NCBI GenBank assembly: GCA_048268855.1
Contig: JBLWUR010000006.1
Coordinates: 38,474 to 102,473 of the forward strand
Length of the DNA stretch: 64,000 bases
Direction: 5' to 3'
Source of the DNA: Fulvivirga sp.
GTDB taxonomy: Bacteria; Bacteroidota; Bacteroidia; Cytophagales; Cyclobacteriaceae
In this document: in pieces, positions 60,169 through 63,218 of the stretch
How positions within the stretch are numbered: position 1 is the stretch's first letter
How the letters are laid out: the number at the start of each line of letters is the position of its first letter
The notes under the pieces: model-generated
The model's database searches: none
What the model saw: only the letters and a program-made list of their open reading frames with translations
Told to the model about the DNA's origin: nothing
Made by a program: the position numbers and the translations under genes

Positions 60169-60873
60169 TTATGATCCCATTTCTTCTTCATTGTGGTCTA
60201 TAATCTTGCTTAATGCAAGGTTTACCACCTCCTCTACTTGTTCTTCCAAAGTCATAAATGTAGTATCAACCACAATTGCATCATCAGCTTGTTTCAAAGG
60301 GCTTTCTTCGCGCGTAGTATCTAGCTGGTCCCGCTTCTTCAGATTATCAATAATGTCCTCCAAATCTACAAGCTGATCTTTTGCAAGAAACTCAGCCTGA
60401 CGCCTACTAGAACGCACATAAATGTCAGCATTCATGAATATTTTCAATTCAGCATCAGCGAAAACAACCGTTCCTATGTCACGACCGTCCATTACCACTC
60501 CCTTCTTTTTACCAAGTCTTCTTTGTTGTGCCACCATGGCATCGCGAACCTCCTTTATACTGCTAACTTGACTTACCTGATTGGAAATGGACATGTCACG
60601 AATTTCATTTTCTACATTTAATCCATTTAAATATGTTTCTGTTTGCTCAGTTTTTTGATTTATCTGAAACGATACTTCAATTTTATCAAGTGCCTTATTT
60701 ATTTCTATCTTGTTAGTCTGGCTCACGTGATTCTCAAGAAAATATAGTGTTACTGCACGGTACATAGCTCCTGAATCAATATAAGTATAACCCAAAATGG
60801 AAGCTACTCTTTTTGCTGTAGTGCTCTTACCACATGCAGAATACCCGTCAATAGCAATTACAATCTTCTTCAT
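60169..60873 (-). CDS. cmk: Cytidylate kinase
   Basis: IAIDGYSACGKST, DSGAMYRA, VMDGRDIGTVVF, RDQLD..RE.SPL; ATG 60873. Confidence 0.97.
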   Translation of the reverse strand: MKKIVIAIDGYSACGKSTTAKRVASILGYTYIDSGAMYRAVTLYFLENHVSQTNKIEINKALDKIEVSFQINQKTEQTETYLNGLNVENEIRDMSISNQVSQVSSIKEVRDAMVAQQRRLGKKKGVVMDGRDIGTVVFADAELKIFMNADIYVRSSRRQAEFLAKDQLVDLEDIIDNLKKRDQLDTTREESPLKQADDAIVVDTTFMTLEEQVEEVVNLALSKIIDHNEEEMGS

Positions 60874-60878
60874 ACTTA

Positions 60879-60998
60879 CTAACAGTCCTTTTGTGGGCAA
60901 GGAATAGGTTTGCCTGGTTTAAGTTTACCGTTTCGTTTTGTGGTGACACAGCCCGAAACTAATGATGCTATTACAATTAGTACTAATAATTTCCTCAC
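60879..60998 (-). CDS. Small cationic lipoprotein, 39 aa (below the ORF-track cutoff)
   Basis: Manual translation from GTG: MRKLLVLIVIASLVSG-CVTTKRNGKLKPGKPIPCPQKDC*; n/h regions plus lipobox VSG-C; TAG lies 5 nt before the cmk ATG. Confidence 0.78.
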   Translation of the reverse strand: MRKLLVLIVIASLVSGCVTTKRNGKLKPGKPIPCPQKDC

Positions 60999-61003
60999 AA
61001 TGA

Positions 61004-61011
61004 CAAATATA
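61004..61011 (-). promoter_or_regulatory. -7 element for the small lipoprotein-cmk unit
   Basis: TATATTTG, 5 nt before the GTG start; ATTG 20 nt further upstream as a possible -33 box. Confidence 0.6.
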
Positions 61012-61045
61012 TGTCTAGAATACGGGGCAACCAATTATTAACTCG

Positions 61046-61732
61046 TCATTCTAGTCGTTGTTGATAGCTCATTTGAAAGCCAATCTTATGCCCACCACCA
61101 AGTGCTTGAGTATTTTCTAATTTTTCATTTAGAGAAATAACTCTAATTGATGGAAAAGGTGAGGTTATTAGGTCAGATTCAATTGATTGACTGATAACCA
61201 ACTGGATTATAATACTTAAATCAGTTTTAGTAAGCGGTTTAGGAGATACTTTTTCAAACATAAAATTGAGTTGCCGCTCTCCCTCTACTAAGAAATGATT
61301 TTCATAATTACAGAAAACACGAGCTACTAAATAGCCAGGGTCATTTAATCTGTTAAATTTTAAGGAATCGGCCATGAAGTTATATATATTAATTTGGCCA
61401 AGATATTTACGAAGTGGTTCTTGCTGCACATAAGGGCTTTTTGAGAAGCCATGGGTATCATCAAGAGTAATGATGTTGGTATGCAAAAGAAACACAAGCA
61501 TATCTCCAGCAATTCTCACCTGAAATTCTTGATTACTTATTTTTGTAACAGACAACTCAATATCTTTATCTTTATCAACTATCTTATCACTGATCTGCTT
61601 TATCACATTCTTAGCTTCATTTTCCAAATCTTTGAAATTTTTACAAAGCGTGCGATAGGTTTTTTGTTTTATGGCTGATTTTGACTCTATTGTTTTAGCT
61701 ATAGACTCAATAGGATTTTGATTTGATGGCAT
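61046..61732 (-). CDS. Conserved hypothetical cytoplasmic protein
   Basis: 228-aa ORF with ATG and globular composition (FLLHTNI, GQINIYNFMADS, NDPGYLVAR, HFLVEG); no family recognised. Confidence 0.75.
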   Translation of the reverse strand: MPSNQNPIESIAKTIESKSAIKQKTYRTLCKNFKDLENEAKNVIKQISDKIVDKDKDIELSVTKISNQEFQVRIAGDMLVFLLHTNIITLDDTHGFSKSPYVQQEPLRKYLGQINIYNFMADSLKFNRLNDPGYLVARVFCNYENHFLVEGERQLNFMFEKVSPKPLTKTDLSIIIQLVISQSIESDLITSPFPSIRVISLNEKLENTQALGGGHKIGFQMSYQQRLE

Positions 61733-61794: not shown

Positions 61795-62088
61795 ATGGGA
61801 AGAAAACCAGAAGGATCAGCAGAAAATCTTTTTAAAAATCTCGGTAAAAAGATCGATGAGTTAATAGAAGATATTAAATCTGGGGCGGAAAATGTGCGCC
61901 ACTCTGAGAGATTTGAAGAATTAAAAAGAAATGGGGAGTCGTTGAAAAAAGAATTCAAGGATTTTAAGGACAGTAACAAGGATGTAATTGATCGAGTAGA
62001 TAAATCATTTGAGAAGGCCGGTAAAGAGATAAGAGAGGCATTTGATAGGGCCTTTTCAAAGGAAGACAAAAACAAAAAGGAGGCTTAA
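61795..62088 (+). CDS. Small highly charged amphipathic helical protein
   Basis: 97 aa rich in K/E/D; own -7-like box (TAAATTTCG) upstream and a terminator overlapping the stop. Confidence 0.72.
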   Translation: MGRKPEGSAENLFKNLGKKIDELIEDIKSGAENVRHSERFEELKRNGESLKKEFKDFKDSNKDVIDRVDKSFEKAGKEIREAFDRAFSKEDKNKKEA

Positions 62089-62100
62089 ACCTCCTTTTTT
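62074..62100. terminator. Intrinsic terminator overlapping the stop of the 97-aa gene
   Basis: AAAAAGGAGG-CTTAAA-CCTCCTTTTTT. Confidence 0.82.
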
Positions 62101-62126: not shown

Positions 62127-63218
62127 TTAACCAATATCCCAATTTTCAATCTCAAGCTCTAAATTGTCTAATTCATCGAATATAGGCTTCAACACATCTT
62201 CTAATTTCTCAGTAGATCCGTCCGCATATTTTATATATGGCACATCATCTTCTTCTTGATCAATGATTTCTGTGACGAATATAATGTCTCCTAACTTATT
62301 GCCACTATTGAACAATGCTAGTTTTATAAAATTATTAGGATTAGGATCATTCGAATTTTCTAAACCGTTTACATCAATAGTGCCTTCAAGTTTAATTGTT
62401 CTATACTGAACAAAACCATTAACCTTATCTATATCTTCTTTTTGAACGGTTAAAAAACTAAACGCAGCGTTTACCGAAACAATTGTTTCAGTTCCTTTCT
62501 TGATGGAAGCCTCCAAATTGGATTGCTTAGATCCAGATGTATCAAAGGCAAAAGCAAAGGTAAACGGATTTAGATACAATGAAACATCACCAGAAATTGG
62601 TTCACCATTTGAATTAAAAAAGGCCTCGAAGTCAATCTCTATTTGCTTTACTTCATTTATTGATAAATCAGCATTCAAAAGTGTGGGTAAGTAATAATGA
62701 TCAAACTCGTCTTCGAAAAGTTGTTCTTCGAATGCTGTTAATCTCAACGTTACATTATTGGTGGAAGATCCTTCTGCTGGAAAATTAATTTCTATAATTT
62801 CCTCTGTTGTTTCAGATTTATCAAATGATTCCGTAGTTGGATTCCAATCATATTGACCCCAATGTAGTGAGAAATTAAACCCATCATCTTCTGTTTTTGC
62901 TAATTTTGATGATTTGCTTACAAAAATCCTCTTAAACAATTTTGCATTCCTTTTGAACCAGTTTTTTGACTCCTTTTCATTCATTACCCTTCCATTAAAA
63001 GGGTCGTTCAACTGCATAAGAGCTGCCAAGTCACTTATTGCTCCTACACCTTCTGATTGCGTTAATTCAACAATATCTACACTCATATCTGTAGATAACT
63101 TAGCCATTGATTGTTTAGCCTCATCAACTGAAACTTGGTTGGATGATTCATCATCCGAATTGCAAGACAAAACAAATAAGCTTAATACCACAAGGAAATA
63201 ATTACTTAATTTTTTCAT
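62127..63218 (-). CDS. Lipoprotein of unknown function, probably surface-exposed
   Basis: Lipobox VLS-C followed by acidic NSDDE (resembles the Bacteroidota lipoprotein export signal). Confidence 0.78.
   Translation of the reverse strand: MKKLSNYFLVVLSLFVLSCNSDDESSNQVSVDEAKQSMAKLSTDMSVDIVELTQSEGVGAISDLAALMQLNDPFNGRVMNEKESKNWFKRNAKLFKRIFVSKSSKLAKTEDDGFNFSLHWGQYDWNPTTESFDKSETTEEIIEINFPAEGSSTNNVTLRLTAFEEQLFEDEFDHYYLPTLLNADLSINEVKQIEIDFEAFFNSNGEPISGDVSLYLNPFTFAFAFDTSGSKQSNLEASIKKGTETIVSVNAAFSFLTVQKEDIDKVNGFVQYRTIKLEGTIDVNGLENSNDPNPNNFIKLALFNSGNKLGDIIFVTEIIDQEEDDVPYIKYADGSTEKLEDVLKPIFDELDNLELEIENWDIG

Follow-up and report, generated by a model that had tools for sequence, protein, structure and literature searches.

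A conserved gene for a predicted mini-lipoprotein precedes cmk in Fulvivirga and other Cytophagales

The window, a stretch of 64,000 nucleotides of Fulvivirga DNA, carries on its minus strand, directly upstream of the cytidylate kinase gene cmk, a short open reading frame that we regard with high confidence, on comparative sequence evidence, as a real protein-coding gene. It is fairly probable that its product is a genuine mini-lipoprotein, i.e. a lipid-anchored, periplasm-facing 23-mer whose C-terminal Cys-x4-Cys knob contacts a partner in the envelope. The family to which it belongs is undescribed and lineage-restricted; it is ordinary in kind and absent from the curated family databases, and it stands out by its degree of conservation, by the fixed twin-Cys knob at the C-terminus and by its coupling to cmk.

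The gene (60879–60998, minus strand) comprises 39 codons from a GTG start (60998–60996) to a TAG stop (60881–60879), which is directly followed by an in-frame TAA. It is thus present as the GTG-started 39-aa ORF proposed in an earlier note on this DNA. The product, MRKLLVLIVIASLVSGCVTTKRNGKLKPGKPIPCPQKDC, consists of a signal peptide and a mature part (MRKLLVLIVIASLVSG|CVTTKRNGKLKPGKPIPCPQKDC). The signal peptide MRKLLVLIVIASLVSG (60951–60998) contains an n-region with RK, a hydrophobic core and the lipobox L-V-S-G before the Cys. Codon 17 (60948–60950) encodes this lipobox Cys, the predicted acylation site and residue 1 of the mature peptide, which was invariant in three alignments. Mature residues 2–15 form a cationic linker, VTTKRNGKLKPGKP (60906–60947), recognized by the charge pattern and the conservation within the family. 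The protein ends with the motif I-P-C-P-x-K-D-C (60882–60905), of which seven residues are invariant in 96 unique sequences. The composition reported earlier for the mature 23-mer (5 Lys, 1 Arg, 1 Asp and 4 Pro, with the end CPQKDC) is correct, and so is the distance of 5 nt between the stop and cmk (60169–60873, minus strand; Pfam PF02224, E 1.7e-65), the ATG of which lies at 60873.

Comparison with relatives established the coding status of this ORF. A coding signature is kept in more than 90 distinct loci, which on sequence grounds is far beyond chance, and the frame is open in every one of them. Conservation in relatives, intact frames and variation at third positions agree with the selected gene postulated in the earlier note. 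For the last 14 codons of 96 distinct sequences, the entropy at codon positions 1, 2 and 3 was 0.37, 0.30 and 1.41 bits, respectively. Third positions are saturated, while the lipobox Cys and the C-terminal IPCPxKDC remain invariant, and each of the seven invariant C-terminal residues uses all of its synonymous codons across the 96 unique sequences. Altogether eight alignment columns are invariant, the lipobox Cys and seven of I-P-C-P-x-K-D-C at the very end; a conservation check of the lipobox Cys and both C-terminal cysteines, suggested earlier, thus found all of them unchanged. The stretch K-L-K-x-G-K ahead of the C-terminal motif is at least 90% conserved. Within the genus, the mature part has a pN/pS of 0.14; the signal peptide, at 0.72, is the fast-evolving part of the protein. 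RNAalifold yielded 0 conserved pairs for 18 Fulvivirga junctions between the peptide gene and cmk, and a search of Rfam gave no match. Codon pattern, pN/pS, the absent consensus RNA structure and the lack of an Rfam match argue that selection acts on the amino-acid sequence. The short length, the GTG start and a promoter box almost on the start codon would also suit a chance ORF in the 5′ UTR of cmk or a conserved RNA element. However, variation with a three-base periodicity around invariant amino acids, a frame open in all loci and the missing consensus structure speak against both, and the codon pattern together with the RNAalifold result refutes a chance ORF as well as an RNA element or hairpin at the cmk start, the probability of which is negligible.

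Upstream of the GTG, the sequence TATATTTG (61004–61011, minus strand) fits the Bacteroidota sigma-A '-7 box' TAnnTTTG and ends 5 nt before the start codon, as had been described. In most Fulvivirga loci a strict TAnnTTTG precedes the start by 5–25 nt, and in several independent lineages that use ATG by 5–8 nt. The sigma-A box spans −12..−5 in F. psychrophilum (PMC9723704). If the box of the window holds the same position, the transcript is predicted to start at 60999, which would leave a leader of 1 nt before the GUG. Such short leaders are the exception in Bacteroidota, at about 4–6% of mRNAs: leaderless mRNAs account for 5.5% in F. psychrophilum (PMC9723704), and about 3.7% of the 5′ UTRs of B. 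thetaiotaomicron are shorter than 10 nt (PMC7366714). A 1-nt leader combined with GUG would make for atypical and perhaps weak initiation, which counts against the reading preferred here. The mechanical list of ORFs carries the same frame further, to a TTG at 61034, which results in a protein of 51 aa. In other Fulvivirga species, stop codons stand directly before the homologous ATG, GTG or TTG start, hence the N-terminal extension of 12 codons is not conserved. Moreover, the TTG (61032–61034, minus strand) lies at approximately −35..−33 of the predicted promoter, where the −33 'TTG' element of the promoter is expected. The 51-aa form was rejected on both grounds.

The organization with cmk was likewise established by comparison. 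In every carrier of the same genus the peptide gene is located immediately upstream of cmk. Of the 89 distinct loci that have cmk close by, 42 share one base between the stop codon of the peptide and the cmk ATG (TGATG/TAATG), most of the others have a stop-to-start gap of 0–16 nt, and the gap measures 35–350 nt in five. From overlap and abutment it is safe to infer co-transcription with cmk, which the earlier note had assumed, and translational coupling to cmk is probable. The same junctions bring up a purely cis-acting upstream ORF, whose translation only delivers ribosomes to the cmk start or tunes cmk, possibly with pausing at the Pro-rich C-terminus as in coupling ORFs or in SecM, MifM and VemP. 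In its favor are the junctions themselves, most of which have the stop on or right against the cmk ATG, and a conservation that is densest in the last ~12 residues, by the stop. Bacteroidota do without Shine-Dalgarno-led initiation (cf. PMC9723704), hence such coupling could matter. Nonetheless, the motif and the lipobox Cys persist where the gene is not by cmk or lies 85–350 nt from it: seven loci (L023, L027, L028, L030, L034, L096 and L111) have no cmk within reach and an unchanged motif, and at such loci various genes adjoin that of the peptide (for primase, adenine deaminase, NDH-2-like and hydrolase proteins). In five Cytophagales genomes lacking the peptide, cmk follows its own TAnnTTTG-like box at a distance of ~35 nt with no small ORF in between and is thus expressed from its own promoter. 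The retention of the peptide away from cmk in several families and the self-promoted cmk of peptide-less relatives argue that the peptide is not just a leader of cmk. Furthermore, two characteristics of the secretion-monitoring arrest peptides SecM, MifM and VemP, the obligatory place ahead of a regulated gene of the export pathway and an mRNA structure that hides the downstream start until a stalled ribosome opens it, were not found here: cmk belongs neither to the secretion nor to the lipoprotein pathway, a fixed downstream gene is not obligatory, and no conserved RNA hairpin masks the cmk start (RNAalifold, 0 pairs in 18 junctions). An arrest peptide would have no need for an invariant lipobox Cys either, and we consider a cis-acting upstream ORF very unlikely. 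A match in the PDB sequences to a MifM-stalling construct was dismissed as coincidence; it concerns a G-K-P-I-P-x-P stretch, which we take to be a V5 epitope tag.

Beyond cmk, the gene order peptide-cmk-nqrA is kept in most loci. This order and the conserved cysteines of the peptide could point to an accessory protein of the Na+-pumping NADH:quinone reductase (Nqr) or a factor in its maturation, loosely comparable to the small Cys-containing protein NqrM; the nqr operon comes after cmk. In contrast, the co-occurrence of peptide and NqrA fails in both directions among 401 evenly drawn Cytophagales genomes. The peptide was found in 17/17, 9/18 and 7/33 genomes of the families f10, f16 and f17, with NqrA in 2/17, 0/18 and 0/33, respectively; conversely, the families f11 and f22 had the peptide in 0/8 and 0/9 genomes and NqrA in 8/8 and 9/9. 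In family f1, to which the window belongs, the values were 26/55 for the peptide and 54/55 for NqrA. These family tallies rule out an NqrM-like accessory factor, a role that we rate as extremely improbable.

When 40 relatives were searched in six frames, the peptide turned up in 23 of the 24 genomes that belong to the same genus (E 1e-7 to 1e-20) and in seven further families of the order. Scanning 185,579 species for the pattern, each represented by a single genome, yielded 299 stretches that were confirmed. The best 80 of these carry Cytophagales names or unresolved labels of Bacteroidota MAGs, and the named ones are all Cytophagales; carriers among these 80 include Fulvivirga, Ohtaekwangia, Chryseolinea, Dawidia, Chryseotalea and Agaribacillus along with MAGs labelled Roseivirgaceae or Cyclobacteriaceae. 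In the 401 Cytophagales genomes, the profile matched in 130 (about a third), and presence follows families: the peptide is near-universal in f2 (13/13), f5 (14/14), f7 (10/11) and f10. It was essentially not found in f3 (0/39), f12 (0/55) and f14 (1/55). Among 401 genomes drawn across the phylum, matches outside the family of the window were confined to the signal-peptide part of long ORFs, with no genuine match in ~385 other Bacteroidota genomes. As the first-look filter scores 18 candidates per genome, these negatives are to be read as 'not found' and not as 'absent'. The restriction to part of one order implies that the phylum does not use the peptide as a general envelope factor. An exhaustive HMMER search over 1.84 billion representative proteins retrieved 103 clusters of 34–153 aa, in which the match always extended to the last residue; the longer ones look like over-extended gene calls. 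This search returned short proteins with the terminal motif only, and no remote relatives or fusions. Within the genome of the window, the same tail (PCPxK[DE]C, or CPxxxC at the C-terminus) occurs in no ORF besides this one. In public records the matches are called 'hypothetical protein' or 'Lipoprotein', or bear generic names that seem to have been carried over from the signal peptide, and none of them has a Pfam domain on record. The exact sequence, in its 39-aa or 51-aa form, is not among ~15 billion predicted proteins, and its relatives are often called with wrong, over-long starts; the gene presented here hence corrects the annotation.

The reading as a periplasm-facing lipoprotein is well supported by sequence features. 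The signal peptide of the window passes the lipobox rule PROSITE PS51257, applied as a regular expression (basic n-region, hydrophobic core, [LVI]-x-[GAS]-C, Cys at 15–35), although Pfam LPAM_1 scores with 18.6 bits (E 0.0025) just under its cutoff of 20; the SPII signal seen by the earlier note holds with this reservation. Of 93 distinct family members, 64 comply with the strict rule and 29 fail it, e.g. by D or E at −1 or −2, while the Cys is invariant in all. Their mature peptides have 23–31 residues, most often 23, carry a net charge of +4 to +7 (+5 in the window), start with C-A/G-S (Ala at +2 in 69/93) and contain three Cys in 91/93. AlphaFold2 predicted a helix at residues 2–15, within the signal, and coil for the rest (pLDDT 77, pTM 0.31); that the peptide-only model is a coil, at a pLDDT of ~70, counts against the preferred reading. 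The export signal of Bacteroidota lipoproteins consists of K-(D/E)2, Q-A-(D/E)2, SDDDD or SDDFE at +2..+6 (PMC5080379). No such surface-export signal is present in the window peptide, which has V-T-T-K-R at these positions, and only 1/93 members has an acidic residue there. By this rule the peptide is predicted on the periplasmic side, and the earlier proposal of a periplasm-facing lipopeptide without an acidic residue after the lipobox Cys stands. Basic residues begin at mature position +5, and since such residues can hinder Sec export, they are a point against the lipoprotein reading.

The lipobox data also bear on a non-lipidated product, either an exported cationic peptide with antimicrobial or signaling function or an uncleaved single-pass membrane micro-protein. 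The non-canonical residues before the Cys in 29/93 members and the LPAM_1 score just below the cutoff are compatible with it, and the cationic peptide with its C-terminal Cys-x4-Cys loop resembles the 'Rana box', the C-terminal Cys loop of amphibian antimicrobial peptides, a resemblance to be taken as a lead only. However, no member deviates from Cys at the cleavage position, a conserved A/G-S comes after it, and the hydrophobic stretch of 12–16 residues is too short for a stable transmembrane helix. In addition, no immunity, transporter or modification genes adjoin the gene at the loci examined, and it is a single-copy gene in a housekeeping operon. We consider a non-lipidated product unlikely.

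For the favored lipid-anchored peptide, the following sequence of events is proposed. The signal peptide of 16 residues would be removed at Cys17 and Cys17 would be lipidated. The remaining 23 residues, with a net charge of +5, would be held in a membrane leaflet by their lipid anchor and face the periplasm. The Lys-rich, Pro-containing linker may lie on anionic lipid head groups. The two C-terminal cysteines would most likely close a six-residue disulfide loop in the oxidizing periplasm; the metal site that the earlier note offered as an alternative is speculative, as are the roles it suggested in LPS binding or as a stress sensor. The rigid knob thus formed would be the functional part, which may dock onto, or swap disulfides with, a lineage-specific envelope partner. 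In line with such a partner, IPCPxKDC-COOH is invariant across families while its x varies freely and widely (Q, M, V, L, H, T, R, K or I), which argues for a specific contact surface and not merely a cationic tail. As the gene appears to stand under the promoter of cmk, with a predicted near-leaderless transcript translationally coupled to cmk, the peptide is probably made constitutively.

A more specific function of the knob can be drawn from the periplasmic C-tails of SprF and PorG, where invariant twin cysteines are first joined in an intramolecular disulfide, which a Cys of the partner GldK then attacks, so that the two proteins become covalently bound (PMC12635249). What these proteins share with the present peptide is an invariant Cys pair at the very end of a tail that faces the periplasm, in a lineage of gliding Bacteroidota. 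The SprF and PorG tails, in contrast, have C-x-C and belong to outer-membrane β-barrels, whereas C-x4-C is found here on a 23-residue lipopeptide, so that the analogy concerns the mechanism only. By this analogy, Cys-Pro-x-Lys-Asp-Cys might be a 'loaded' intramolecular disulfide that is attacked by a Cys of the partner, making the lipopeptide a reversible covalent membrane tether or adaptor. We regard such a tether as quite unlikely; if true, a free mini-lipoprotein would do what the SprF/PorG-GldK links do in the gliding and T9SS machinery, and a leaflet of the membrane would be coupled to a periplasmic machine in a way not seen before.

Searches of Pfam, NCBIfam, the PDB sequences and Rfam returned no significant match beyond the similarity of the signal peptide; the NCBIfam matches of this kind were LptM, entericidin and TrbH. 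LptM (YifL) of the LptDE translocon in Enterobacteria is likewise a very small lipoprotein that is often missed or poorly annotated; it works through the short N-proximal part of its mature form, which binds a large machine of the outer membrane. The present peptide is not a member of that family, as NF047847 scored 12.2 bits against a cutoff of 27.7 and covered residues 1–17 only, and PF13627 matched one of 27 members with E 0.09; sequence kinship does not extend beyond the signal peptide. Unlike the present family, which is confined to part of Cytophagales, LptM lacks a C-terminal twin-Cys motif. The mini-lipoproteins VirB7 and TrwH, small structural subunits of type IV secretion systems with ~45 residues, are of a similar size class. 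TrwH was the best PDB match (7o3j_C, E 0.032), aligned with residues 5–26 of the query, i.e. signal peptide and lipobox only, whereas no T4SS genes occur near the peptide gene and the C-terminal motif is unrelated. Lastly, the enterobacterial mini-lipoproteins entericidin A/B, OsmB and Lpp have size class and lipobox in common with the peptide. The top NCBIfam match, entericidin A (NF007319), reached 14.4 bits against a cutoff of 86 in the signal peptide only, and mature sequence, charge pattern and distribution differ from all of these proteins.

Tiny lipoproteins such as LptM, which gene callers routinely overlook, have recently emerged as functional subunits of essential envelope machines. 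In our case, eight invariant residues across divergent Cytophagales families indicate strong purifying selection on a gene that is hard-wired to a housekeeping gene. The predicted peptide of 23 residues with two cysteines offers a clean, small target for the study of an envelope interaction in marine and soil gliding bacteria.

A few Cytophagales genomes had two profile matches (G222, G027, G192, G194, G234 and G276). In G222 (C32:157073-157413) the two lie in tandem, ~60 nt apart, which suggests an occasional duplication of the mini-lipoprotein gene. At least some of the second matches (G027, G192, G234 and G276) are signal-peptide matches inside long ORFs only.

The surroundings of the gene gave further observations. 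In many, though not all, relatives, a 228-aa protein (40–93% identity) is encoded directly upstream of the peptide gene (61046–61732, minus strand, in the window); it lacks a signal peptide and gave no match in Pfam or NCBIfam. On the plus strand, at 61795–62088, a divergent charged helical protein of 97 aa is syntenic in most relatives and weakly resembles sll1863-family and YtxH-like stress proteins (NF052504, 29.7 bits, cutoff 35). Its gene converges with that of a 363-aa lipoprotein-like product without Pfam or NCBIfam match (62127–63218, minus strand), and between the two sits a perfect bidirectional terminator-like hairpin, AAAAAGGAGG...CCTCCTTTTT (62074–62099). At L023, L096, L128, L130 and L131, an adenine deaminase gene (Amidohydro_1 and Adenine_deam_C) divergently adjoins the peptide gene. 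This adjacency occurs in several families, with or without cmk downstream, and looks like a remnant of an older gene order and not like a functional link.

Lastly, records of Bernardetia, Thermonema and Thermoflexibacter (L128:3568-3958, L129:3805-3996 and L131:3837-3980) have one or two more genes for tiny cationic lipoproteins immediately ahead of that for the peptide, in the same orientation. A motif scan of the genome of the window found no copy of them. Their mature peptides read C-x-H-A/S-P-x-x-A-W-T-P-K..., or C-A-P-K-R-P-P-Y-G-Y... in Thermonema, and from these sequences they look like a second, unrelated mini-lipoprotein family in a small array.
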